Shown: positions 9,916-46,110 of the stretch, one piece after another
Position numbering within the stretch: position 1 is the stretch's first letter
Layout of the letters: each line of letters starts with the position of its first letter
NCBI GenBank assembly: GCA_025449535.1
Contig: JANWJF010000001.1
Span: 549,136-613,135 of the forward strand
Length of the DNA stretch: 64,000 bases
Direction of reading: 5' to 3'
DNA from: Candidatus Saccharimonadia bacterium
Lineage (GTDB): Bacteria; Patescibacteriota; SICC01
Position numbers and translations under genes: made by a program
Notes under the pieces: generated by a model
What the model saw: only the letters and a program-made list of their open reading frames with translations
The model's database searches: none
What the model was told of the DNA's origin: nothing

Positions 9916-11151
9916 GTGCCGAACATCCAAAAGAAAATCAAGGGACTGAAGCCGGACGTCCGCAAGTGGTCGAAGCGGCATAAGGTCGTCGTCGGCATCC
10001 TGGCGGCGCTGGTGCTGCTGTACGTCGTCTACGGCATCATCCTCTATGCCACCGGCGGCAGCGACGGGCTGACCCGGTTCGTCTCCAACTTCGCGTACTA
10101 TCCGGCCGCCAAGGTGTTCGCTCCCGGCTTCTGGCCGTTCTTCCTGGGCAGCATCGTCGCCACCGCCATCCTGATCGGATCGGTCGGCCGACTGGCGTAC
10201 CTGTTGATCGGCAAGGGCAAGACGGCCCGCGACGACCTGCTTATCCCGGGTGCCCTGGTCGTGCTCAGTGCGGTCAGCCTGGCCTGGTTGCCGCCCGTCA
10301 CCTCGGCGACGGTCAGCTACGGCGAGTTCCTCGAGCGCGTCGCCACTTTCGACAAGATCCAGTCCGCCCAGCAACAGGCCCAGGGGCTTCCCGCCCAGCA
10401 GGACGCGACGATTCGGCCGTTCGCCCTCCAGCAACTGATCCAACAACGGCTGGTCCAGCAGGTCGGCACGAAGCTCGGCATCTCGGTCAGCGACCAGAAG
10501 GTCGACGAGGCCTACAAGGAGCAAGCCCAGCGTGTGCAGGGCGAGAAGGAGTTCAAGCGGTTACTCAAGGAACGCTTGGGCTGGTCACCGCGCGAGTACA
10601 AGCAGGAGCTCCGCACCAACGTCCTGCTGCAGGAAGCGCTGAACGAGAAGATTACCACCGATCCGAAGCTCAACAAGGACGCCAAGGATAAGGCGGACAA
10701 GGCGCTGCAGGCGCTCAAGGACGGCCAGAGTTTCGCGGCCGTCGCCAAGAAGTATTCCGAGGACCCGACCGCCAGCAAGGGCGGCGCCCAAGGCAAGGTG
10801 AAGCGCGGCGAGCTGGATCCGGCGATCGAGAAGGAAGCCTTCGCGCTGAAGGTCGGCGGCACCAGTAACGTGATCAACGCCCGCCAAGGCTTCGTGATCA
10901 TCAAGGTGAACTCACGGAACGAGCAGACGGTCGACCTCAGCCAGATCCTGGTCGTCGGCAAGAGCGTCACCACGTACTTCCAGGAGATCCTGCCGAAGAC
11001 CAAGGTCTGGGTGATGGTGGACGGGTTGCGCTGGGACAAGACCCTGTTCGTCGTCCAGTCGACCGAACCGCAGCCGCAACAGCAGTTGCCGCAGGTCCAA
11101 GGATCGGGCGCTCCGGCCCCGGCCCAGTCCGGCGCCCCGGCCGCCCGATAG
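9916..11151 (+). CDS. membrane-anchored PpiC/parvulin-type peptidyl-prolyl isomerase (PrsA/SurA-like)
   Basis: N-terminal TM segment. The parvulin core is FAAVAKKYSEDPTASKGGAQGKVKRGELDPAIEKEAFALKVGGTSNVINARQGFVIIKV. The C-terminus is Gln/Pro-rich. Confidence 0.8.
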   Translation: MPNIQKKIKGLKPDVRKWSKRHKVVVGILAALVLLYVVYGIILYATGGSDGLTRFVSNFAYYPAAKVFAPGFWPFFLGSIVATAILIGSVGRLAYLLIGKGKTARDDLLIPGALVVLSAVSLAWLPPVTSATVSYGEFLERVATFDKIQSAQQQAQGLPAQQDATIRPFALQQLIQQRLVQQVGTKLGISVSDQKVDEAYKEQAQRVQGEKEFKRLLKERLGWSPREYKQELRTNVLLQEALNEKITTDPKLNKDAKDKADKALQALKDGQSFAAVAKKYSEDPTASKGGAQGKVKRGELDPAIEKEAFALKVGGTSNVINARQGFVIIKVNSRNEQTVDLSQILVVGKSVTTYFQEILPKTKVWVMVDGLRWDKTLFVVQSTEPQPQQQLPQVQGSGAPAPAQSGAPAAR

Positions 11152-14727: not shown

Positions 14728-15019
14728 AACAGGCGGAACATGCGCATGGTCACGCCCGCTGCAGGAACCCTAGCAAGTACAACATGAACGTGAAGGTTAC
14801 GGTGATCGCGTACAGCTCGAAGCGCGCCCCGGTATCCAGGAAGGAGGCGATCACGAGTGACGCGATCCATACAACGACGATACTGATGAGGACGAAGAGG
14901 TACTTCAAGAAAACGCGTATTTATCTTCCCCTGTGCCTCAAGGATATCACCTTTTCTCCAAGCACCTGCCACGCCTAGGTTGCAAGTCATCAGGCATGCT
15001 ATCCTTATCCGTTCGCATT

Positions 15020-17476
15020 ATGAATGAAGAGAATCCAGAGTCGGAATGGTTGACTGCCGAAGCCTCCCGGTGGGCGTTCGATGAGACCGTATGGAATCTG
15101 CTTGTAACAGCCCCACATAACCCGCAGGGCCTTACGGTTGGCAGCATGGCGGAATACGTGGCCAGGCGGTATGTCCATCGTGCACGCGGGCTGCCATCAG
15201 AACATACCGATGTCAGTAATGTGGACTTTTCCGGGTTGACCGAAAACGAGCCTTTACCTGGGCCTGAGCCCACCGAACCGGGCGCCAAGCCTGATGATTC
15301 TGGTACCGTCGACTTGGCGAAAGGCGACATCAGTCCCGAAGATCAGAAGGAAATCATGGATTCGTTGATCTTGGCAATCGCCCGGCATTACGACATCCAG
15401 CCCATCGATCTCATGATGGGTGATCGCAAACGCAAGCTCTACAAGCCCCGTCGCGTAGCCTGCTACGCGCTCCGGAACTACGCTAGGATGCCGTTCGATG
15501 ACGTCGCCAGGATCATCGGCGGAACGAGTGCATCGGCGGCATACCAGTCGGCGCTGAGAGTCCGTAGGGAAGATCTTCCTCGGGATATCGAATTACAACG
15601 TGACCTGGTCAGAATCCGCCAGGCCATCCCTCCAGAGCACCGACGTTACATTGCTGACGACGACCTGTTCGACCCGGTCGTGCTTGAAGCGACCGAAGGG
15701 GAGTTCACGCCTGGAGCAATAGAGCCAACCGAGGTCGAGAAGCCGGAAGGAATCCCGGAGGTTCCCATTGGTGACATCATTTTCGAGGTGTGCCGGCAGT
15801 TGGAGGTGACCCAGGAGCAACTGGTCGCCAAGCGGTCTCGGTACGAGAACCGACCGCTGCAAATCGCCGCTTTGCTGGCTGATGAGCTGACCGACTTTTC
15901 ACACGAGAAGATTGGAGCCGAACTGGGAGACCGGTCCGCTCCCGGTATCAAGTCATTGGTGAACCGGGCCGCCCAGGTGATTCCCGACGATCCCGAGTGG
16001 TCCGGACGTTTCCAGGCGGTCAAGGAAGCGCTGCTGATTAGGCATGGCATTCCGGTCGACGGATTGGATGGTGATTCAAGCCAGAATCCGCTGTTCGACA
16101 TGTTGGACGAACCAGGAGAACGGGATGACATCGGGCCGGTCGAAATCGCCCCCGGGGCACCGGAAGCGGCTGAACTCAGTGTCGAGCCCGATGGCCAGTC
16201 TGATGCCGACGAGGAAAAACCGGAAGTCCTGATAGGCGACGAACCGGGGGAAGAAGATGTGGCTCCGGAGGAAGTCGGCGATCCGGAAGGAACGACTGAT
16301 GGTACGGCGGCGGGTGGAGAAAAATTGGCCGAAGAAGTAACCCCGCTTGTGGACGATGAGGAAACTGATGATGAGGCACTCGGCCAGGAGACGATTGAAC
16401 TTTCTACCGAGGGAAGCCGGGCCCAATATACCGAAGAAGGTATCCAAGAGACCATCAAGGCGGTACAAGAAGGGGAAAAGGGTGCGGAAAATGATTTGCT
16501 GTCCAGCCTCCAGCCGAAGTTCGTGGGAGCTGTCGGGGGAGAACGACTTTCGGGATCCAAACGGAATGCCCGCTTAGCGGAGCTCCGCAGCGATGCATTG
16601 GTAGCTGCTAGGCGGTACGACCTTCGTGCGAAGAAACCTATCCTTGAGGCGATTGCAGAGGTGCGGGCGGAGCGGATTCTCCGGCAGGAAAGAACGCAGG
16701 AAGGACTGCAAAAATTGGTGCCTGAACCCTTGCCTGGAGAAACGGACATTGCAAGGGATATCCAAGCTGATTCCGAAGCAGCAGAGCGGCTCCTCCGACA
16801 TTACGATGGAATGATCGACGGCATCACGACCCTTTGTGTCGGCAAGAAGCTCGATGCGGAGGTGAAACAGCTGCTCCGGACGGCCGCAGAAAGCCAATTT
16901 CTGACTGCGGCGAGATACTTTCATACCAGCGGCAATGAGCATTTCGGACTCTGGTGCGCCAAGAGCATCAGCGTCGCCTTGCACAAAGAGATTGAGAAAC
17001 CCAAAGTGGCGGAGCAGCTTGATGCGGCGGAAGAGGAAGCCATCGTGGAAGAGCCGGACGAAACGACCAGTGCAGTCGAGGAACCACCTAAGACAAAACC
17101 CATCTCCACCAAGGCTCCTGTCGTCCTGCCCAAGGACCGGACCGAGCATTTGTTGCCGGTAGGATCCCTGGCGGTCATCGTAGGCAATCAGGAGGAACGG
17201 GTGACCAGGGTTAGGATCAAGGATCCGGAAAAGGACAACACCATAGTGACGAATCTCGAAATACTGGAACAAAATATCAGGGCCAATCCGCACATCATCT
17301 GTGGCACGAATTCACCTGTCCTCATCCCCCTATCGGTACTGGCACGGATACGAGAGGACGACTCGTTTAGAAAGCAATGGCTTGAGCAATGTCACAATGG
17401 GTATACTCCGGATTCGGTCCGGATGATAGAGCGCAACATCGACGCGGCATTGGCTGATCCATTGTTGGCTGCCTAG
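15020..17476 (+). CDS. large acidic protein with two DnaA domain-IV-like HTH domains and a distinct C-terminal domain (hypothetical regulator)
   Basis: Residues ~125-190 (IQPIDLMMGDRKRKLYKPRRVACYALRNYARMPFDDVARIIGGTSASAAYQ) and ~260-330 (…AKRSRYENRPLQIAALLADELTDFSHEKIGAELGDRSAPGIKSLV) match the DnaA C-terminal pattern. A long Asp/Glu-rich linker follows. GC is lower than the flanks. Confidence 0.7.
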   Translation: MNEENPESEWLTAEASRWAFDETVWNLLVTAPHNPQGLTVGSMAEYVARRYVHRARGLPSEHTDVSNVDFSGLTENEPLPGPEPTEPGAKPDDSGTVDLAKGDISPEDQKEIMDSLILAIARHYDIQPIDLMMGDRKRKLYKPRRVACYALRNYARMPFDDVARIIGGTSASAAYQSALRVRREDLPRDIELQRDLVRIRQAIPPEHRRYIADDDLFDPVVLEATEGEFTPGAIEPTEVEKPEGIPEVPIGDIIFEVCRQLEVTQEQLVAKRSRYENRPLQIAALLADELTDFSHEKIGAELGDRSAPGIKSLVNRAAQVIPDDPEWSGRFQAVKEALLIRHGIPVDGLDGDSSQNPLFDMLDEPGERDDIGPVEIAPGAPEAAELSVEPDGQSDADEEKPEVLIGDEPGEEDVAPEEVGDPEGTTDGTAAGGEKLAEEVTPLVDDEETDDEALGQETIELSTEGSRAQYTEEGIQETIKAVQEGEKGAENDLLSSLQPKFVGAVGGERLSGSKRNARLAELRSDALVAARRYDLRAKKPILEAIAEVRAERILRQERTQEGLQKLVPEPLPGETDIARDIQADSEAAERLLRHYDGMIDGITTLCVGKKLDAEVKQLLRTAAESQFLTAARYFHTSGNEHFGLWCAKSISVALHKEIEKPKVAEQLDAAEEEAIVEEPDETTSAVEEPPKTKPISTKAPVVLPKDRTEHLLPVGSLAVIVGNQEERVTRVRIKDPEKDNTIVTNLEILEQNIRANPHIICGTNSPVLIPLSVLARIREDDSFRKQWLEQCHNGYTPDSVRMIERNIDAALADPLLAA

Positions 17477-22261: not shown

Positions 22262-22278
22262 GCTAAACTGGACGGTGC

Positions 22279-22349
22279 GCGGGTATCGTATAGTGGCATT
22301 ACGCGTGCTTCCCAAGCACGAAAGAGGAGTTCGATTCTCCTTACCCGCT
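22279..22349 (+). tRNA. tRNA-Gly (anticodon CCC)
   Basis: Acceptor GCGGGTA/TACCCGC, anticodon stem cgtgc/gcacg with loop ttCCCaa, and a short variable loop. Confidence 0.85.
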
Positions 22350-22358
22350 CAACGAACA

Positions 22359-22550
22359 GTGAAAGGTTCCACTGAGAAACTGTTGTCCGCAATGCTTGCC
22401 ATCATCAGGCACAAGCCTGGCATCCGTCCGTCCGAACTGAACCGGCGCTTGGGTCGCGAGCACTCAAACCACTATCGACGGACGCTGATCAAACGAGGAC
22501 TGGTCAGGAAAGAGAAAGACGGTCCAGTCGTGCGGTATTATCCTGAGTGA
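22359..22550 (+). CDS. small winged-helix DNA-binding protein (putative transcriptional regulator)
   Basis: A GTG start directly after the tRNA gives VKGSTEKLLSAMLAIIRHKPGIRPSELNRRLGREHSNHYRRTLIKRGLVRKEKDGPVVRYYPE, which has an HTH and a wing-like pattern. GC is low. Confidence 0.5.
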   Translation: MKGSTEKLLSAMLAIIRHKPGIRPSELNRRLGREHSNHYRRTLIKRGLVRKEKDGPVVRYYPE

Positions 22551-22554
22551 ACGC

Positions 22555-23058
22555 ATGAAAACCGCTCTCATTGTCATAGACGTTCAAAATTACTTCGTGA
22601 ACGATCGCACCGCCAGGGTTCCTGGAAAGATTGCTGACCATATCCGTTTACGAAAACCCGAACTGGCTTTCTTTACCAGGTTCATCAATAAGGAAAGTTC
22701 CCAGTTCGTAAAGATGCTCAACTGGCGCGAGTGCATGAGCAGTCCTGATGTTGACCTCAGTCCAGAAATCAAAGCGTTCGCGGGCGAGCCGAATACTTTT
22801 GACAAGACTGGCTTCTCGATCTTTCGGTCGAAAAGTCTCACGTCTCGTCTAAAAGAAGAGAACGTGACTCATGTACAACTATGCGGCATCGACATTGATG
22901 CTTGCGTGCTGGCATCGGCCTATGAGGCATTCGACCGAGGATATCGCGTAGAGGTGCTAGACGGTATCTCTGGAAGCCACCATGGCGAAGACTTAGGCAG
23001 AGCCGCGGTTGATATCATTAATAGGAACCTGCGATCCAAGAGTGAACCCAGGCAATGA
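22555..23058 (+). CDS. isochorismatase-family cysteine hydrolase
   Basis: LIVIDVQNYF…; the conserved Cys lies in QLCGIDIDACVL. 167 aa in a lower-GC segment. Confidence 0.75.
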   Translation: MKTALIVIDVQNYFVNDRTARVPGKIADHIRLRKPELAFFTRFINKESSQFVKMLNWRECMSSPDVDLSPEIKAFAGEPNTFDKTGFSIFRSKSLTSRLKEENVTHVQLCGIDIDACVLASAYEAFDRGYRVEVLDGISGSHHGEDLGRAAVDIINRNLRSKSEPRQ

Positions 23059-23188
23059 TTCCAACCCGGCAGTCTCTACTATGGGACGCAACGTGTTAAT
23101 TCCTCGGTCTTTTCGATAGTATGCTCAGTTATGACTCACCAAATACGGAGGCCGGGAGAACCGGCCGACGGACGATAATGGAAACAAT

Positions 23189-23836
23189 ATGGCATCCGAA
23201 GTAGCACGCGTAGAAGGCGTCGAACCAGGCGGCAAGAAAGGCGTTCGCGCCTGGCTACGGGAACGTTTTCCTCTGCGCTCGGATCACGAGATGGCTACCG
23301 AGCGAGCGGTCGCGGAAGCGGTGAAGGACTCGGAGTTCGTCGGCCCGTACCCGCGCTCCGTATCCGACGCGGTAATCACCGGCCTTGAGCAGGGCCTTCC
23401 ATTGCCGGACGAAGCCCATCTCAAAGGAAAGCAGGCCACGGGGTTTGCGTGTGAAAGACGTCCGACCATGATCCTGGTCGGAGACCCGCTGGCTCCTAAC
23501 TTGGTGGTCTACCGGATTGAGATCCAAGAGACGGTGGATCGCTGCAAAGAGGTTGAACTGACGATCGCGGGTGAGGGTGACCAACGGCAAGTTGTCGAGG
23601 CGACCGCTTGGTTCGAGCAACACCTTCTCGGTCAGCAACAAGCCGTTCCTCTGGGACTGCCGCTTCCAATGGAGTCCATGGATTTGCTTAAGCTTGCCGC
23701 GGATCTCGAGGGCCGCGTCCGGGATGGGACCTCCATTCCTGTTCAGGGGACGGCTGAACAGAGAGTTAACATCCACCATGTCGCCCCGCGTTTGTCTGCC
23801 GACGGGCCGGAGACGGATGCCAGGTTGGATCCATGA
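23189..23836 (+). CDS. hypothetical protein
   Basis: 215-aa ORF with coding-like composition and no recognisable motif. Confidence 0.5.
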   Translation: MASEVARVEGVEPGGKKGVRAWLRERFPLRSDHEMATERAVAEAVKDSEFVGPYPRSVSDAVITGLEQGLPLPDEAHLKGKQATGFACERRPTMILVGDPLAPNLVVYRIEIQETVDRCKEVELTIAGEGDQRQVVEATAWFEQHLLGQQQAVPLGLPLPMESMDLLKLAADLEGRVRDGTSIPVQGTAEQRVNIHHVAPRLSADGPETDARLDP

Positions 23837-23858
23837 GTCCGGTGATACAGTAAAGTCG

Positions 23859-28978: not shown

Positions 28979-29227
28979 TTACTGTCGAGGCGTAGCTTCG
29001 CGGACGGTAAGCTCTCGTCCGTCGAGCTCCTTACCGTTGAGCTCGGCGACGGCCTTGTCGGCCTGCGCGTCGTCGTCGAACTTCACGAATCCGAATCCGC
29101 GACTGCGGCCGGAATCGCGATCGCTGACCACGTTCGCTTGCGTCGGGCTGTAGGCAGCAAAGTGCTGCTTCAGTCCGTCGCTGTCGACGCTCCAAGGAAG
29201 ATTGCCAATAAACAATTCCTTAGCCAT
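28979..29227 (-). CDS. RRM-domain RNA-binding protein
   Basis: RNP-2 LFIGNL and RNP-1 RGFGFVKF motifs. 82 aa. Confidence 0.85.
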   Translation of the reverse strand: MAKELFIGNLPWSVDSDGLKQHFAAYSPTQANVVSDRDSGRSRGFGFVKFDDDAQADKAVAELNGKELDGRELTVREATPRQ

Positions 29228-29396
29228 GAACGGCTCCTTTCGTTACCAGAGGAGCCTCGGACAAACCTAACACTCAATCTCTGCATTGATACAACGCGGT
29301 AAGCGTAGAGGAATACCGTGGTTTTGGCAAATTTAATGGCAAGCTACGCGTAAATTCGATACACTGCAGGGTCTTTATGGAAACGCGGGTAATCAG

Positions 29397-30065
29397 ATGA
29401 GCGGCGATCCAGGCGGACCTCCCGAAGGGCCGGACCGTCCGGAAGTGCTGTACGAAGGTCCGTACAGCATCGAGCAGTGTGCCGCCGCGGCGTGCTGGGT
29501 CTATGACCTGTCACTAAGCGAGCTGAGAAGCGCCTCTCGGATGAACAGCGCGTTGAGCGCTCGCAGCCTGGCGGTCTGCCTGGCCCGGGCCCAAGAGGAG
29601 CCGCCGTCGTATCCGCAGATCGGAAGATACCTCTACCGGCATCATTCGACGATTATGAACAGCGAAGCCCGCGGCAGGGCGATGCTCGAAGATAACCGGG
29701 AATTCAGGATGCGGTACGAGAAGGCGCGGCGAGGAATCCAGGAAGGCACCGTCGAGAGGGGGCCGACCAAACCCAGTGAGGATCGCCTCCAAGACCTGAT
29801 CAAGGACGCCATTTGGCGCGGAGAGCTTACTCCGATCGACGTGCTGGACCATGAGATTGCCCGGGGAATGAAGATCCACGAATTACTGGTTGCGCTGCCC
29901 GCTTCGGATGGCGAAGCGACGATGAGTGCCGAGGAACGGGCCAGCCTGATCCTCCTGACCGCGGGGATACTGGAAAGGCGACGTGTGCAGGACATGTCTC
30001 AAGTCGAGAAGGACGCCCTCTACCACGTTCTTGATGAGCTAGGGTTCATGCCGAAGTCAGCCTAG
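29397..30065 (+). CDS. DnaA domain-IV-like HTH protein (not DnaA; hypothetical regulator)
   Basis: SIEQCAAAACWVYDLSLSELRSASRMNSALSARSLAVCLARAQEEPPSYPQIGRYLYRHHSTIMNSEAR matches the DnaA C-terminal DNA-binding pattern. No AAA+ domain is present. Confidence 0.6.
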   Translation: MSGDPGGPPEGPDRPEVLYEGPYSIEQCAAAACWVYDLSLSELRSASRMNSALSARSLAVCLARAQEEPPSYPQIGRYLYRHHSTIMNSEARGRAMLEDNREFRMRYEKARRGIQEGTVERGPTKPSEDRLQDLIKDAIWRGELTPIDVLDHEIARGMKIHELLVALPASDGEATMSAEERASLILLTAGILERRRVQDMSQVEKDALYHVLDELGFMPKSA

Positions 30066-30080
30066 CTGTACACTGGAGCC

Positions 30081-30590
30081 ATGCCGGCCTCCAAAATCAG
30101 TCTCGACCAGGCCAAGCCCAACAAATTGTTCTACGTGGTGGCAACGGCCATGCCATACCGTAAGTCCGACGGCCGGTGCTTGATCCTCAAGCGCGACGAA
30201 CGGGAGACCGCACACCCCGGCAAATGGGGCGTAACCGGCGGGAAGCTCGAGCACGAGGACTTCGACCTTGCCAAGCCGACCCGGATGAACGGCGATGTTT
30301 ACGATTTCCAGGGCGCGTTCGAAAAACTGTTACGGAAAGAGGCGAAAGAGGAAGCGGCGATCAAGCTCGGCGATGACTTCCGTTACTTGGGCAGCTTGGT
30401 ATTCGTGCGCCCGGACGAGACGCCGGTCGCGTTGTTCCAATTCGCCGCCGAATACGCCGGCGGAGACGTGAAGCCCGAAGTTGGCGGATTCACGGACTTT
30501 GCCTGGGTAAACGCCGAAGAAGTGAAGCAATACGATTGCATCGACGGCATCCATGATGAGGTCAGCCGGACGATCGCGGCGTTCGGGTAG
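30081..30590 (+). CDS. NUDIX hydrolase
   Basis: NUDIX box GAFEKLLRKEAKEEAAI (GX5EX7REUXEEXGU-like). Confidence 0.75.
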   Translation: MPASKISLDQAKPNKLFYVVATAMPYRKSDGRCLILKRDERETAHPGKWGVTGGKLEHEDFDLAKPTRMNGDVYDFQGAFEKLLRKEAKEEAAIKLGDDFRYLGSLVFVRPDETPVALFQFAAEYAGGDVKPEVGGFTDFAWVNAEEVKQYDCIDGIHDEVSRTIAAFG

Positions 30591-32401: not shown

Positions 32402-34699
32402 CTACGGGGCGACGACCTTCAGCAGCATGTTGTACCCCGGGTCGGGGAACCAGGCCGCGCCATCTTGCACCAAGGAGAAGTACTCCCGGTAGGTGCCGGG
32501 CGCAGGAGCCGCGGTCAGGGGTACGCTGAACAGGGCGATCTGTCCCGGCTCGATCATGGTGTCGGCGCCGTTCACGGTCATGTTGCCGCTGAGGTCGGTG
32601 ACCGTGCCGTCTATCGTCGAAGCCCGGTTGGCGTTCAGCCACGGGTCACCGCCGGTGAGGGTCCGGAAGGCGGAGCTGCGGTTCTGCGGGTGGGTCGTCG
32701 CCAACCGGACGGGGTTGGTCCCGCTCGCGGACCAGGTGAGGCGGCCGGTATTCTTGATCGCGACCCGGGCGGTCATCGTGCTGTTCCGGGCGAAGGATTG
32801 CTGGTTCCCGGAGTAGACGGTCTTCATGAACTGGAGGTTCCGGGCGACCGCTACCGGTACGGGGAAGTTGATTCCGTAATCCTCGGGCAGCCAACCCACC
32901 CCGTCCATCACCGGTCGGACGTAGAGCCGGTAGTTGCCGGCGCCCAGGCTGTCCGGGATCGTGATCGTGAAGTCGAACTCGGCGACCTGACCGGGATCCA
33001 CCGTCGTATCCCCGGGCGCGCCCACCACGGAATCCACGGCCGACGGCCGGTTCCGGGCGATCCAGGGGTCGGGTCCCGTGGTAGTGATGAAGGCGGACTT
33101 GTGGTCCCGGGCCCGGTCGGTGCCGAGCCTGAGGTTGCCGTCCACCGGCCAGGCTTCCCGTCCGGTGTTCTTCAGGCGCACCGTGACGTCCTGCTCGGTC
33201 ACGCCTGGGGTGATCGTCGCGGGGTCGGCCGACTTGGACACGTACGAGTAGTGGTAGCCGCGGTCCAGGATGTTGAAGAGCACGGAACTGCCGGTATCGG
33301 ACATGTGCTTCTTGCCCTCGACCACCGGGGAGAAGTACTCCCGGATGTTGCCGACCTTGTCCGGCGTGGTGGTCACGAACGAGAAGACGGCGATCTCGCC
33401 GGTCGTGATCGTCGCGTCCGCCACCACGGAATCAGTTCCCGGATCGTACCGTCCGTCGATGGCGGAAGCCCGGTTCTTGTCCGGCCAGTTCTCCGAAGCG
33501 TCGATATCTCCCGCCCCGATCGTCCGGAAGGCGCTGGTGCGGTCCGTCGGCCGCCGGGTCGCCAGACGCACGGGGTTGGCCCCGCCGGCGTTCCATTGCA
33601 ACTCCCCGACGTTCCTGACCAGGATCTTCACGCTTCGCCGGTCACCGGGCAAGAGGCCGGAGGGCGAGGCCGTCGAATCGAGGTCCGTCGGCCCGGAGTC
33701 GGGTTCGGTGACGTAGGTCCCGTAGTGTTGGCCGCGCCAGTCCGGCGGCTTGATCGTCATGGTGGCGCAAAGGCCCAGGTCGCGCATCCAGCCCAGGTTC
33801 TCGACGACCGGCGCGAAGCACTCCGGGTAAGTGCCCGGGTTACCGCTCGACTTGAACGTCGCCCGGAACTGCGCCAGCTGGCCCGACGGCGTGTCGTCCA
33901 ATAGTTCGATCCGGTTGCGGGTCAGCCATCCCTCCGCGGTCCCGCCGTCCGAGAACCCGCTGCCGCGGTCCTGCGGCCGGTTGCCGCCGAGACGCACGGG
34001 CGTCGATCCGCCCTTCAGCCACGTCTGCCGTCCGGTGTTCCAAAGCTTGAAGGTCATCACGGACTCGCCGTTGCTGTTCATGGACCGGTTTCCGGAAATC
34101 GCGGCACCGACGTAGTCGTAGTTGGAACGTCGGTCGTTCACGTACTTGCCCGATGCGACCCAGCCGGCGCAGCAACTCGGCTCGTACCCGTGGATGGTGT
34201 GGTCGTAGGAACCGGTCCCGGCCTTGTAGGTGGCCTGTCGGATCCCGAAGTGGGTGTGCGGATCCCAGTTGCCGTTTACCGATCCGCGCGGTCCGACCGT
34301 CCCGATGCGCTGGCCTTTCTTGACCGTCGCCCCGGCCCCGACGCGCCGGTCGTTGTTGAGGTGCCCGTAGAGGCTCAGGATCGAGCTGCTCTTCCAGCTA
34401 TGCTGGATGATGATCAGATTGCCCCAACGGTACGAGTCGGGCGTCCGGGCCGAGTACTTCACGACGCCGTCGGCTGCGGCGAACACCGGGATGCCGTCGT
34501 TATGACAGACGTCCTCCGCGACGTGATATCCCCACCCCCCGATGTACTGGCCGTACGCGTAATTCGGCGTCCCGTACGGGAAGCAGGGAATCTGGAACGA
34601 GGACGCGGCCTTGGCGTCCGCGGGCCCGACCGTCAGCACGAAGGCGGCCGCGGTGATCGCGGCGGCCGTGCCGAGCAAGAATGTCAGTATTGATTTCAA
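32402..34699 (-). CDS. secreted M23 (LytM-type) metallopeptidase followed by four ~120-aa repeats of an unrecognised domain
   Basis: Signal peptide. M23 motifs HVAEDV…GHLNNDRRVGAGATVKKGQRIGTVG…HTHFGI. The repeat consensus is NTG..xW..GG.NPVRLGT.RP.DRSSAF…NRAS.IDG…PGQ.A.F.F…PG.YREYF.PV.EG..W. The start is TTG. Confidence 0.8.
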   Translation of the reverse strand: MKSILTFLLGTAAAITAAAFVLTVGPADAKAASSFQIPCFPYGTPNYAYGQYIGGWGYHVAEDVCHNDGIPVFAAADGVVKYSARTPDSYRWGNLIIIQHSWKSSSILSLYGHLNNDRRVGAGATVKKGQRIGTVGPRGSVNGNWDPHTHFGIRQATYKAGTGSYDHTIHGYEPSCCAGWVASGKYVNDRRSNYDYVGAAISGNRSMNSNGESVMTFKLWNTGRQTWLKGGSTPVRLGGNRPQDRGSGFSDGGTAEGWLTRNRIELLDDTPSGQLAQFRATFKSSGNPGTYPECFAPVVENLGWMRDLGLCATMTIKPPDWRGQHYGTYVTEPDSGPTDLDSTASPSGLLPGDRRSVKILVRNVGELQWNAGGANPVRLATRRPTDRTSAFRTIGAGDIDASENWPDKNRASAIDGRYDPGTDSVVADATITTGEIAVFSFVTTTPDKVGNIREYFSPVVEGKKHMSDTGSSVLFNILDRGYHYSYVSKSADPATITPGVTEQDVTVRLKNTGREAWPVDGNLRLGTDRARDHKSAFITTTGPDPWIARNRPSAVDSVVGAPGDTTVDPGQVAEFDFTITIPDSLGAGNYRLYVRPVMDGVGWLPEDYGINFPVPVAVARNLQFMKTVYSGNQQSFARNSTMTARVAIKNTGRLTWSASGTNPVRLATTHPQNRSSAFRTLTGGDPWLNANRASTIDGTVTDLSGNMTVNGADTMIEPGQIALFSVPLTAAPAPGTYREYFSLVQDGAAWFPDPGYNMLLKVVAP

Positions 34700-34761: not shown

Positions 34762-37488
34762 TCAATCGCTGGCCTGGGGCGATCCGACGACGCTGCCTGA
34801 CACCACCAGGCTGTGGTCCGGGAACCAGGCCCGATTCTCCTGGACCAACCGGAAGTATTCGTTGAAGTGGCCGACGGTGCTGGCGGTGACGGTGAAGTTG
34901 AACAGGGCCGTCTCGCCGGGCAGGATCTCCGTGGCCGGGGTCGAATCGAAGGTCGTGACGTTGAGCACGCGGCCGTCGATCCCGGACGCTCGATTTGCCG
35001 AGAGCCAGGGGTCTTCGCCGGCCAGTGTCGCGAACGAGGAAGACCGGTCCGTCGGGCGGGCGGTGCCCAACCGGACGCGATTGACGCCGCTGACGGGCCA
35101 AGCGTACCGTCCCGTGTTCTTCACCGCGAGCTGGACCACGGCGGTGTCGCCCGTGCGCAGGTCACTCAGGTTCCGGGAGGCGGATTGTCCTACCACCCGG
35201 TAGTCGTAGGTCTGGGCGGTGACGTTCAGTGGCACGGAGATGCCGCGGTCGGGGAACCAGGCCTCGCCCTCGCGGACCAAGTTGAACCGCTCCGTGCGCG
35301 CGCCGCCCTCGACCTCGGAGCTCACCTGCATCGGCACGTTGAACTGCGCGATTTCTCCCTGCTTGATCTCGGCCGCGCCTGTATCCAGGGAATCGCCGTC
35401 AACGCGCCCGTCGATCCCGGAGGCCCGGGTCGGCGAGAACCAAGCGTCGGCGCCGGTCAGCGCGGCGAAGGCCGAGGAGCGATCCTGGGGTCCGCTGGTC
35501 CCGAGCCGGACCGGACTCGGGCCGTCCACCGGCCACGGCACGTGGCCGTGATTCCGAATCCGGACGGTGGCGGTGACCGTGTCACCGTAGCCGAGGTCCG
35601 CCGGGTTCTGTGAGTAACGTTGGCTGACCACCCCGTAGTCGTAGTCCCCGGAGCGCACGGTGACCGGGACATACTTGTCCGATTCCCGCAGCCACTCCTT
35701 GCCGTCGATCACCGGTCGGAAGTACTCGCGATATGACCCGTCCGGCTTGGAGGCCGACTTCACCTGGAAGTCGAACCGGGCGATCTGGCCGGGGTCGACC
35801 ACGTCCTCGGCCGGCGCGTCGGCCACGGCGTCGATGGTGCTGGCCCGGCTGGCGGAGATCCAGTCCGGGCCCCGGAACGCGGATGACCGGTCGCGTTTCC
35901 GATCGGTGCCGAGCCGGAGCGGACCGCCGACCTTCCATGAGGACTGGCCGCTGTTCCGGATGTAGACCCGAGCCGTCTCGGTGTCGCCGCCGAGGGATAT
36001 CGGATCAGGGTCGTCCTGCTTCACCCATGCGTAATGGTTGCCCTTGGGCAGCACGCGCAAGCCGAAGTGAAGGTTGGCATCCAGCCAACGATCGCCCTCG
36101 ATTACCGGCCGGAAATGCTCGCGGTACTCGCCCGACTTGCTGGGAGACTTGACAGTGAACGAGAAGACGCCGATCTGTCCCGGCTTCACGGCGGACGCGG
36201 GGGTGATCCGGCTCTCCGACGGGATGTAGATGCCGTCCAGTTTGGACGCGCGGTTCCCGGCAAGCCATCCTTCGCTGCCGGGTACCCGGCCGCCGGACTT
36301 CACGGCGAACCCGCTGCGCCGGTCGCGGCGATGCTCGGTCCCGAGCCGTACGGGATGCTTGCCGCCCGCGTTCCAGGCGAAGTCGCCGGTGTTCTTAATG
36401 TAGGCTTTCAGGTTCACGAGGGTGCCGCCGGCCAAATACCGGTGCGTGTCCGTCCGGGTCAGGGAGACCGGGGAGAGGTCGTCATGGGCCGTGACGCGGT
36501 AGCCTTGGGCTCCGTACCGCGGCAAGCGGACCGTCACCTTAGCGTGCATACCGGTGTCCCGCATCCAGCCGACGCCTTCCACGACTGGCCGGAAGTACTT
36601 ATGGTACGTCCCCGGCTTCACTCCCTTGTTGTTGAACCGCGCCCGGAAGACGGCGGTCTGGCCGGGGGCGGTGTCGGACTGCATCTCGATCCGGCTGGGA
36701 TTCAGCCAGCCGTGTCCGCCCATGCCGGCCGAGAAGGCGGTGCGGTGGTCTCGCGGACGGTCGGTCCCGAGCCGTACGGGGTTGGCGCCGCCCTTGCTCC
36801 AGGTTGCGGTGCCGGTGTTCCGCAGGCGGAACTCGACCCAGTATTCCGAGGACTTGCCCTGAACGGTGGCCCCGGTCTGCGAGATATGGCTGTAGTTATA
36901 CGTCGGCTGCCGCACCTGACGGTTCTGGATATAGCGGGTCGGGTGGGTGTAGCGGTTGATCTCTCCACCGCGCTCGTACCCGTTGATCAGGGACCAGTAG
37001 CTTCCGGTCGCCGTGCCGTAAGACCCGGGCGTGATCGAGAAGTGGAGGTGCGCTCCCCAGCGGCCGTTCTCCCGGGTGTGTCCTGGGCCGATGGTACCGA
37101 TCCGTTGGCCCTTGCCGACCCGCTGTCCGGCGCTGACCCGGCGGTCGTTGCCAAGGTGTCCGTACAGCCCGACCGCCCGCGACCCGTCGTCATGTTCGAT
37201 CATGATCAGGTTGCCCCAGCGCCAGGAGTCCGGCGTGAGCGCAGAGTACTTCACCGTGCCATCGGCGATCGCGTAGACCGGTGTCCCGGCCCGGCACCCG
37301 ATGTCCTGCCCGGAGTGATACCCCCAACCGGAGACGAACTGGCGGAAGTCGTAGCCGGACAAGCGCCAGGGGGAGCAGCCGTACTGGTACCCGGAAGCCG
37401 CGTGGCTGGGTCCGGCACCGACGAACGCCGCGGCGGCGATCAGGACCGCTGCCGTCATTCCCAGGATGAGTGTCTTCCGCCTATGCAT
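34762..37488 (-). CDS. secreted M23 metallopeptidase paralogue followed by ≥5 copies of the same ~120-aa repeat
   Basis: Signal peptide MHRRKTLILGMTAAVLIAAAAFVGAGPSHA. M23 core YHSGQDIG…GHLGNDRRVSAGQRVGKGQRIGTIG…HLHF. The repeats resemble those of the adjacent paralogue. Confidence 0.8.
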   Translation of the reverse strand: MHRRKTLILGMTAAVLIAAAAFVGAGPSHAASGYQYGCSPWRLSGYDFRQFVSGWGYHSGQDIGCRAGTPVYAIADGTVKYSALTPDSWRWGNLIMIEHDDGSRAVGLYGHLGNDRRVSAGQRVGKGQRIGTIGPGHTRENGRWGAHLHFSITPGSYGTATGSYWSLINGYERGGEINRYTHPTRYIQNRQVRQPTYNYSHISQTGATVQGKSSEYWVEFRLRNTGTATWSKGGANPVRLGTDRPRDHRTAFSAGMGGHGWLNPSRIEMQSDTAPGQTAVFRARFNNKGVKPGTYHKYFRPVVEGVGWMRDTGMHAKVTVRLPRYGAQGYRVTAHDDLSPVSLTRTDTHRYLAGGTLVNLKAYIKNTGDFAWNAGGKHPVRLGTEHRRDRRSGFAVKSGGRVPGSEGWLAGNRASKLDGIYIPSESRITPASAVKPGQIGVFSFTVKSPSKSGEYREHFRPVIEGDRWLDANLHFGLRVLPKGNHYAWVKQDDPDPISLGGDTETARVYIRNSGQSSWKVGGPLRLGTDRKRDRSSAFRGPDWISASRASTIDAVADAPAEDVVDPGQIARFDFQVKSASKPDGSYREYFRPVIDGKEWLRESDKYVPVTVRSGDYDYGVVSQRYSQNPADLGYGDTVTATVRIRNHGHVPWPVDGPSPVRLGTSGPQDRSSAFAALTGADAWFSPTRASGIDGRVDGDSLDTGAAEIKQGEIAQFNVPMQVSSEVEGGARTERFNLVREGEAWFPDRGISVPLNVTAQTYDYRVVGQSASRNLSDLRTGDTAVVQLAVKNTGRYAWPVSGVNRVRLGTARPTDRSSSFATLAGEDPWLSANRASGIDGRVLNVTTFDSTPATEILPGETALFNFTVTASTVGHFNEYFRLVQENRAWFPDHSLVVSGSVVGSPQASD

Positions 37489-45720: not shown

Positions 45721-45789
45721 AATCTACAGCAGGAACGGTCCCTAAGCCTTGACTAAAAGGCAAAATTCTGCTATGTTACGCCATTAATC

Positions 45790-46110
45790 ATGGGTGATTC
45801 GGAAAAAGCAGAACCTGCGGGGCTAGCCCCTCACGTAGCCGGCGAGACCGGCGAGGATCCGGTCGAAGCCGTGCTCCGGGGAGAGGAGCGCGACTTGGCG
45901 CTCGAAACGGTGCTGCGTATGCACGAGGAAGGCGCCCTGGATGACCGCCAACTGGCAGTACTTGAAGCCCGGTTCAGGGACGAAAAAGGGTACGAGGAAA
46001 TCGGCAGCAAACTCGGTCTGACCGGACCGACGGTTAGTCAGATAGAGCAGGGCGCGCTGAGCAAAGTCGGCGCCGTGCTTCGGCATACCGGCTACTTTGA
46101 TTCACATTAA
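45790..46110 (+). CDS. sigma-70 region-4-only HTH protein
   Basis: YEEIGSKLGLTGPTVSQIEQGALSKV matches the sigma-70 region 4 / LuxR-type HTH. The protein is only 106 aa and has no region 2. Confidence 0.55.
   Translation: MGDSEKAEPAGLAPHVAGETGEDPVEAVLRGEERDLALETVLRMHEEGALDDRQLAVLEARFRDEKGYEEIGSKLGLTGPTVSQIEQGALSKVGAVLRHTGYFDSH

Follow-up and report, generated by a model that had tools for sequence, protein, structure and literature searches.

A hypervariable, optional cassette gene of a Candidatus Saccharimonadia chromosome, predicted to join a DnaA domain IV-like head to an actinobacterial IHF-like domain

The cassette gene and its chromosomal setting

We examined a 64,000-nucleotide (nt) stretch of a Candidatus Saccharimonadia bacterium (assembly GCA_025449535.1, contig JANWJF010000001.1, forward-strand positions 549,136 to 613,135), hereafter the window, and focused on a small cassette gene at 29397–30065 on the plus strand. 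The open reading frame (ORF) starts with ATG and encodes a protein of 222 amino acids (aa), here P0001, with the stop codon included in the coordinates; a first-pass annotation of this DNA had the position, start and quoted sequence right. NCBI lists the protein as HEY8108945.1, a “helix-turn-helix domain-containing protein” of a Patescibacteria group bacterium. Profile and fold comparisons divide it into a helix-turn-helix (HTH) domain of the DnaA domain IV type (aa 23–116; 29463–29744, plus) and an H2TH domain resembling the integration host factors (IHFs) sIHF and mIHF (aa 128–215; 29778–30041, plus), and among related genomes the gene proved both optional and hypervariable. The locus reads, in order, a divergent RRM protein gene, the cassette gene, a NUDIX hydrolase gene, a family-2 glycosyltransferase gene, genes for two large M23 peptidases, a GT4 gene and ATP synthase genes.

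The codon bias of the ORF is gene-like, with a GC content of 0.73 at third codon positions (GC3) against 0.46 at second positions (GC2). The first ~22 aa (29397–29462, plus) are rich in proline and glycine and predicted to be disordered (pLDDT below 50), and the real start could lie slightly downstream of the annotated ATG. The linker between the two domains (aa 117–127; 29745–29777, plus) was modeled with lower confidence, at a block pLDDT of ~61.

The head matched Pfam PF08299 (Bac_DnaA_C) over aa 30–89 with an E-value of 1.4e-9 and 38.3 bits, which exceeds the gathering score of 31.5, and the P0001 orthologues scored 47.8 and 54.9 bits. TIGR00362 (DnaA) aligned aa 24–112 with model positions 347–435 of 437, that is, with the extreme C-terminus of DnaA, at 37.4 bits against a curated cut-off of 343.9 for a full-length DnaA. 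As the first-pass annotation had stated for AAA+, Pfam and NCBIfam profile searches detected neither an AAA+ nor a DnaA N-terminal domain. The top sequence match in the PDB was domain IV of Mycobacterium tuberculosis DnaA (3pvp, E 3.8e-4). An AlphaFold2 model of P0001 was then built on the family alignment (mean pLDDT 81.2), and Foldseek superposed its head on 3pvp with a template modeling (TM) score of 0.90 and a root-mean-square deviation (rmsd) of 1.7 Å over 96 columns, and on Escherichia coli 1j1v with a TM score of 0.88. As the Pfam threshold, TIGR00362, PDB and fold matches agree, a similarity limited to a generic HTH is refuted. By profile and model, aa ~23–116 are a true homologue of DnaA domain IV, a span that takes in the residues ~24–95 where the pattern had first been noticed.

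What follows the head had been described as a short helical region. It is helical, but the C-terminal half of P0001 appears to form a separate, independent domain of ~90 aa with the fold of the actinobacterial IHFs. The NCBIfam model actino_IHF (NF041260) matched P0001 with an E-value of 0.0057 and 17.1 bits, and the longer orthologues P0004 and P0101 with E-values of 1.9e-6 and 1.7e-6 (28.3 and 28.5 bits). A three-sequence profile of the domain placed mIHF (6tob) first in the PDB at E 0.026, and hhalign aligned the domain with a joint mIHF and sIHF alignment at E 5.2e-5 over 75 columns, covering mIHF residues 21–99. The sIHF-DNA complexes 6bek and 4itq ranked first in Foldseek for the whole model and for an independent model of the C-domain alone (pLDDT 86.5, predicted TM score 0.76), with TM scores of 0.69–0.77 and an rmsd of 2.0 Å over 87 columns. 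Next came mIHF and, after a clear gap, endonuclease VIII, topoisomerase VI-B, uS13 and KsgA/TFB1M; the same other H2TH proteins are the structural neighbors reported for sIHF (PMC3627587).

Residues invariant in the family within this domain are K136, I139, R141-G142-E143, V149-L150, G157, K159, G190-I191, R195 and S201. sIHF contacts DNA non-specifically through its second H2TH turn and an arginine-rich lid between helices 4 and 5 (PMC3627587). The equivalent of the lid in P0001 is aa 190–201, GILERRRVQDMS, of which the family keeps G190-I191, R195 and S201.

On the upstream side, the RRM RNA-binding protein (28979–29227, minus; 82 aa) is 93–100% identical across the clade and served as our locus anchor. 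On the downstream side, the NUDIX gene (30081–30590, plus) begins 15 nt 3′ of the cassette ORF with no terminator called between them, and it is found at the locus both with and without the cassette. Co-transcription of the two is probable, and the cassette gene would open a NUDIX-glycosyltransferase transcription unit as its first cistron.

Distribution and variability of the cassette

To assess distribution, we scanned 1.84 billion cluster representatives exhaustively with HMMER. This returned 100 proteins at E ≤ 1e-3, nearly all of 95–285 aa and matched only in their DnaA_C part, some of them with 2–5 tandem copies. Both domains were common only to P0001, P0002 (230 aa, 37% identical, E 2.7e-30) and P0004/P0101 (273/297 aa). 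The 273-aa P0004 model is preferable to P0101, because the start of the latter falls within a conserved promoter-like segment. All three two-domain clusters lie at the same chromosomal position in metagenome-assembled genomes of related Patescibacteria, one narrow clade. Word-indexed homologue searches returned only P0001 itself for the full protein and nothing for a profile of its C-domain, and a search of GTDB species representatives by P0001 peptide pattern gave no relatives. The invariant flank TTACCAGAGGAGCCTCGGAC, used as bait, recovered only the L008 genome among GTDB representatives and nothing in the JGI metagenome collection. When further alleles were sought through RRM orthologues of 70–81% identity, the genomes concerned were not syntenic.

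We then compared the window with the two other occupied loci, L006 and L008. The hypervariable segment spans 29377–30078 (plus): window flank similarity ends at 29376 and returns at 30079, and between these limits genomes with 76–98% identical flanks show no similarity in nucleotide sequence. Between the window and L006, neighboring proteins are 64–93% identical and the cassette proteins 36%; between the window and L008 the values are 62–93% and 25%. L006 and L008 are the closest of the genomes, with neighboring proteins 84–100% identical (RRM protein 100%, glycosyltransferase 98%), yet their cassette proteins share only 28%, so that allele distance is out of step with genome distance. Their DNA is 97.8% identical up to a point ~30 nt ahead of the start codon; alignment resumes at the stop codon (91–96%), with no detectable similarity between these limits. 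By domain, identity between alleles is 28–37% in the N-domain and 33–43% in the C-domain, and 38 residues are invariant in all three, mostly in the cores and at putative DNA contacts. The alleles have GC contents of 0.56–0.62 against 0.62–0.64 for their hosts, and a GC3 somewhat under that of their neighbors, especially in L008.

The cassette is also absent from some relatives. The site is empty in L022, a close relative with an RRM protein from the same 90% cluster: there the NUDIX gene directly follows the RRM upstream region, and homology to the window stops at 29334 and restarts at 30081. The presence/absence segment is thus 29335–30080 (plus) and comprises a promoter-like piece, the ORF and the 15-nt spacer. 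Another relative, L021, has a PurN-like gene at this place. A RelB/YafQ-type toxin-antitoxin pair lies near the locus in L022 (6125–6661) and is absent from the window, L006 and L008, which is further evidence that the neighborhood is a variable region. The promoter-like element, ATGGCA-18 nt-TACACT (29336–29365, plus), was read by eye; each of the three occupied loci retains it, and the empty site lacks it. A sigma-70 consensus scan called no promoter at the cassette locus. We also observed a 7-nt direct repeat, TACACTG, at 29360–29366 and 30069–30075, with one copy on each side of the variable ORF, as also in L006. Its upstream copy contains the −10-like element and its downstream copy stands just before the NUDIX start, where L008 has TAAACTA; the repeat may have arisen by chance, through duplication of a promoter element or as a scar of recombination.

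This pattern indicates that old alleles were probably replaced by recombination through the conserved flanks and not by drift or accelerated in situ evolution, because neutral sequence cannot diverge so far under flanks of 96–98% identity and because allele and genome distances are unlinked. A mechanism of the diversity-generating retroelement type was considered and rejected, as divergence is even over the whole ORF and both domains, with no short templated variable region. Within the species of the window, five contigs were 100% identical over up to ~14 kb, and the species is clonal in the available samples, so that it yields no signal of polymorphism.

Other features of the region were also recorded. 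In L006 the NUDIX gene (10667–10885) was called at 72 aa, against 169–170 aa in the window, L008 and L022, which may reflect a truncation or frameshift in that genome. A leader of ~107 nt (29228–29334) precedes the RRM (“cold-inducible RNA-binding protein”) gene and is 91–94% identical across genomes whose proteins differ by 20–30%. An invariant 9-bp hairpin within it, GGCUCCUCU...AAAGGAGCC (29232–29256, minus strand), sequesters the Shine-Dalgarno sequence; it showed no covariation, since there is no variation, and had no Rfam match. The element may act in temperature sensing or in autoregulation. The two M23 peptidase genes, 32402–34699 and 34762–37488 (both minus), encode giant tandem paralogues of 765 and 908 aa with ~40% mutual identity, several internal repeats and faint N_BRCA1_IG matches, and are kept across the clade. 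An Rfam scan of the window found tRNAs only. One of these, tRNA-Gly(CCC) at 22279–22350, is 100% identical to its L006 counterpart and is followed by ~1.5 kb (22355–23858) absent from L006, which holds an isochorismatase-family ORF (22555–23058, GC3 0.54) and may be a small insertion. The ORF at 22275–22550 of the gene map overlaps the tRNA and was set aside as spurious.

DnaA-box contacts and other DnaA_C proteins

Next, we asked how far the head retains the residues with which DnaA reads its box, TTATCCACA. We used six base-specific contacts of E. coli DnaA, R399, P423, D433, H434, T435 and H439, as given in two papers (PMC2533591, PMC7561715). The P0001 equivalents of E. coli residues are R48 (R399), R56 (R407), P73 (P423), R81 (R432), H82 (D433), H83 (H434), S84 (T435), T85 (T436), N88 (H439) and R92 (K443). 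Against the E. coli series R P D H T H, P0001 has R P H H S N, with three of the six identical and a conservative T-to-S exchange, which falls short of the full conservation expected of a DnaA-box binder. P0002 has R P G H S R, and P0004 has Q T D H T Y and keeps the DHTT signature. The specificity-reading positions are exactly where the three alleles differ. No box of the consensus TTWTNCACA was found in the window, although with 1.2 expected by chance this is weak evidence.

The first-pass annotation had counted three DnaA_C domains in the window. The count is right, but the other two share a single protein of 847 aa (14933–17476, plus), so that two proteins are involved and not three. PF08299 matched this protein in two stretches (68.3 bits), corresponding to degenerate domains at aa ~143–204 and ~281–366. 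Their contact rows are R D S A S Q and R E S A P S, each with one of the six kept, and the DnaA-box signature is lost. The protein also has long linkers rich in aspartate, glutamate and proline and a C-terminal part of ~350 aa without a family match, and PHROG and PADLOC gave no matches to it. The GC3 of its gene, 0.62, is far under the 0.83–0.88 of the neighbors. Its annotated GTG start overlaps a divergent ABC1-kinase gene, and the real start may be at 14996 or 15020.

These domains had been taken to indicate that the organism has an enlarged set of paralogues that bind DnaA boxes, which our comparisons did not bear out. BLASTP of the 222-aa against the 847-aa protein did not align the DnaA_C domains. 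Among the six-frame ORFs of the window, phmmer with the domain as query found no close P0001 paralogue, and a small local domain IV profile matched only the 847-aa protein. As the two proteins cannot be aligned pairwise and no window paralogue was found by phmmer, a recent lineage-specific expansion is unsupported. A search for an upstream motif common to the two DnaA_C genes of the window gave nothing beyond chance. A DnaA-box-binding paralogue family is likewise unsupported, because the contacts vary, partly to the point of loss, and there is no box, no shared motif and no pairwise alignment; a tie to a conserved DnaA-box system would also be unexpected for a gene that is dispensable and hypervariable among close relatives. 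Binding of some DnaA-box-like site by the protein is nonetheless possible, especially for the P0004 allele. An ORF at 45757–46107 (plus) was examined as a further DnaA_C copy and rejected, as it matches Sigma70_r4 instead. Its 117-aa product is essentially sigma-70 region 4 alone (PF04545, 38.1 bits), without regions 2 and 3, and the ORF overlaps an opposite-strand ORF (45823–46086) that is preferred by the GC3-based gene map.

Phages and metagenomes commonly contain stand-alone DnaA_C proteins, which are therefore not specific to this organism. The viral structure database BFVD holds dozens of phage “DnaA C-terminal” proteins of 90–190 aa, as well as ~95-aa phage proteins named “Integration host factor MIHF”. 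The closest DnaA_C-only relatives of P0001 include early genes of Mu-like phages. We observed ~205-aa DnaA_C-only proteins in the IMG/VR viral contig L025 (4974–5588) and in L024 (6001–6624), an unclassified contig that carries Mu-like genes; they represent a conserved early gene of Mu-like transposable phages. In L025 the gene stands between a MuB-like ATPase gene and DUF3164; in L024 DUF3164 directly follows it, and a MuB/TniB-like ATPase gene lies two genes upstream. Other relatives carry the domain in tandem, twice in P0003, three times in P0013 and five times within the 1680 aa of P0012. The chromosomal relatives P0003 and P0007 bear the IMG label “chromosomal replication initiation ATPase DnaA” though they lack the ATPase, and such labels call for caution, as they are wrong for proteins without one.

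Proposed role, alternatives and comparison with known systems

Taking these data together, we lean, with somewhat better than even confidence, toward P0001 being an accessory, allele-specific DNA-binding transcription regulator or architectural protein and not a replication initiator. This role appears the likeliest because the alleles differ precisely at the positions that read the DnaA box. The domain IV head would read a short site through its recognition helix, YRHHSTIMNSEAR, with R48 of the basic loop placed in the minor groove. A flexible linker would lead to the H2TH module, which keeps an arginine-bearing lid with R195 invariant in the family. Behind its own conserved promoter-like element, the gene would stand first in the NUDIX-glycosyltransferase unit. 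At least three very old alleles (about 25–36% identical) would have moved by recombination among chromosomes that are almost identical elsewhere, with the gene absent from one close relative. Each allele would have its own DNA targets, as GafA-type regulators reuse a DnaA-like head. The ORF, its two folds, the synteny, the hypervariability, the empty site and the residue differences are established by the analysis; DNA binding, target sites, co-transcription and a regulatory role are what we infer for P0001.

Several points weigh against this proposal, beginning with the absence of a motif shared upstream of the two DnaA_C genes. The regulatory role is drawn by analogy, the structure models were built from alignments of three to four sequences only, and the population-genetic argument is qualitative, with three alleles and one empty site known. 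The IHF link of the C-domain would be one of remote homology plus fold. No allele reaches the curated NF041260 cut-off of 60 bits and P0002 has no listed match to that model. Pfam PF22525 (H2TH_5), to which sIHF itself scores 127 bits, was unmatched by the P0004 C-domain and the full-length alleles at E ≤ 1, and by P0001 at E ≤ 10. The second H2TH turn, LPGVGK in sIHF, is exchanged in P0001 for a longer acidic loop. The strongly basic DNA-binding surface of actino_IHF proteins is likewise lacking in P0001, whose C-domain (aa 128–222) has a net charge of −8 and an isoelectric point (pI) of 4.7, compared with −10 and pI 4.6 in P0002, +7 and pI 10.8 in P0004, and +7 and pI 10.1–10.4 in sIHF and mIHF. 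Because of this acidic charge and the replaced turn, DNA binding by the P0001 C-domain is doubtful. The acidic modules of P0001 and P0002 may as plausibly serve for protein contact or modulation as for a non-specific DNA clamp, and the P0004 module, with a linker rich in lysine and arginine, is basic like sIHF.

An alternative that we consider unlikely is that P0001 competes with or helps DnaA at DnaA boxes, binding oriC, the dnaA promoter or titration sites while its IHF-like domain shapes the DNA of the origin, a part comparable to that of IHF alongside DnaA in E. coli. The head fold is nearly superimposable on complexes of the DnaA DNA-binding domain with DNA, the equivalents of R399, P423 and H434 are kept and T435 is conservatively replaced by serine, and P0004 combines the DHTT signature with a basic IHF-like domain and a basic linker. 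Cooperation of IHF and DnaA at oriC, datA and DARS2 is established in E. coli (PMC5742627, PMC4245941). Yet P0001 has histidine for D433 and asparagine for H439, the alleles disagree at these positions, and a gene that is absent from a close relative and hypervariable is not what would be expected of a partner in a conserved DnaA-box system. The lack of DnaA boxes in 64 kb, where 1.2 were expected, adds a weak argument, and the C-domain of P0001 is acidic. In addition, sIHF has a fold unrelated to that of E. coli IHF and causes no sharp bend in DNA (PMC3627587).

We gave a similarly low probability to an origin from phages or mobile elements, in which the fusion, resembling a moron or a superinfection-exclusion gene, would have been captured by the chromosome and would work to the benefit or detriment of phages, for instance through binding to their origins or att sites. 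An arms race would explain the diversification and patchy presence, and such a role is compatible with the DNA-binding mechanism that we propose. Both modules exist as small stand-alone phage proteins in BFVD, Mu-like early genes are among the nearest DnaA_C-only relatives, the cassette shows both presence/absence and allele replacement, and its GC3 lies somewhat below that of its neighbors, especially in L008. mIHF, moreover, is named as a host factor for mycobacteriophage integration. However, no integrase, transposase or other phage or mobile gene was found at the locus in any genome examined, and P0001 had no match in PHROGs or PADLOC at E ≤ 0.01. By tblastn it was unmatched in 50,697 phage and 72,556 plasmid records, and no viral protein matched both of its domains, the BFVD entries matching one each. 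The cassette also occupies the same locus in three species, with a conserved promoter-like element.

That the ORF is decaying or functionless and eroding neutrally under relaxed constraint would fit the empty site and the very low sequence conservation, but is highly improbable, as flanks of 96–98% identity leave no time for neutral decay to undetectable similarity, and three intact ORFs, both folds, 38 invariant residues, the promoter-like element and a gene-like codon bias are all kept.

The proposal of an allele-specific regulator or architectural factor can be extended, though with a probability slightly lower again than that given to a DnaA-box partner or a phage origin, to an idiomorph-like “specificity slot”. 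Ancient, highly divergent alleles would persist in a Patescibacteria clade under balancing or frequency-dependent selection and be swapped by homologous recombination through the flanks, each with its own DNA site, and the IHF-type module would derive from the gene pool of actinobacteria or actinophages. Such a slot might, for instance, determine exclusion of, or incompatibility with, phages or other replicons whose initiators are DnaA-like.

Stand-alone DnaA_C proteins were already known, though uncharacterized; the fusion and its population behavior are new. We found no description of a DnaA_C/sIHF fusion in the literature, and no paper treating IHF, DnaA and Saccharibacteria together. Metagenomes and phages hold an abundance of DnaA_C proteins without AAA+, almost all of them uncharacterized, and P0001 presents the domain as a portable, putatively DNA-reading head. 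The sIHF nucleoid-protein fold has been treated as restricted to Actinobacteria (PMC3627587), and the predicted fusion would widen the known range and domain combinations of both modules. As the three alleles at one fixed site differ both in specificity positions and in second-domain charge, they form a natural experiment that could help to show how specificity changes in DnaA-type heads.

Compared with DnaA itself, the head of P0001 has the same fold as domain IV (1J1V, 3PVP; TM 0.88–0.90) and the same layout of HTH and basic loop, and it keeps the equivalents of R399, R407, P423, R432, H434 and T436. It differs through the absence of domains I–III, the AAA+ domain included, and through the exchanges D433 to H, T435 to S and H439 to N. 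Whereas DnaA is universal and conserved, P0001 is fused to another domain, accessory and hypervariable. The stand-alone DnaA_C proteins of phages and metagenomes (such as the Mu-like P0005, the L025 protein and the BFVD entries) are similarly small and AAA+-less with a DnaA_C head, and mostly uncharacterized, but their C-terminal parts are unrelated and an sIHF-like domain was found in none. With sIHF (SCO1480) and mIHF (Rv1388), the C-domain shares a helical core with the H2TH and an arginine-bearing lid. In contrast to them, it only partly represents the long N-terminal helix, has a longer loop in place of the second H2TH turn, is acidic instead of strongly basic, and belongs to a fusion in a host from the Patescibacteria and not the Actinobacteria.

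Reuse of DnaA_C outside replication has other precedents. Y1 (TnpA-REP/TIRYT-like) HuH proteins with a C-terminal Bac_DnaA_C domain exist (PMC6006769), although P0001 has no HuH/Y1 domain. GafA, a transcription activator of gene transfer agents (GTAs), has a DnaA-like head, and small DnaA-like proteins are encoded next to gafA in Hyphomicrobiales (PMC9638019). P0001 is like the GafA/GafY-type activators of Rhodobacter and Caulobacter in having a DnaA-like N-terminal head followed by a second module for DNA binding or protein contact, but it lacks a sigma-region-4-like or DUF6456 part (PF08299 being its only Pfam match), has no GTA context and comes from another phylum. The resemblance to GafA is an analogy of design and not whole-protein homology.

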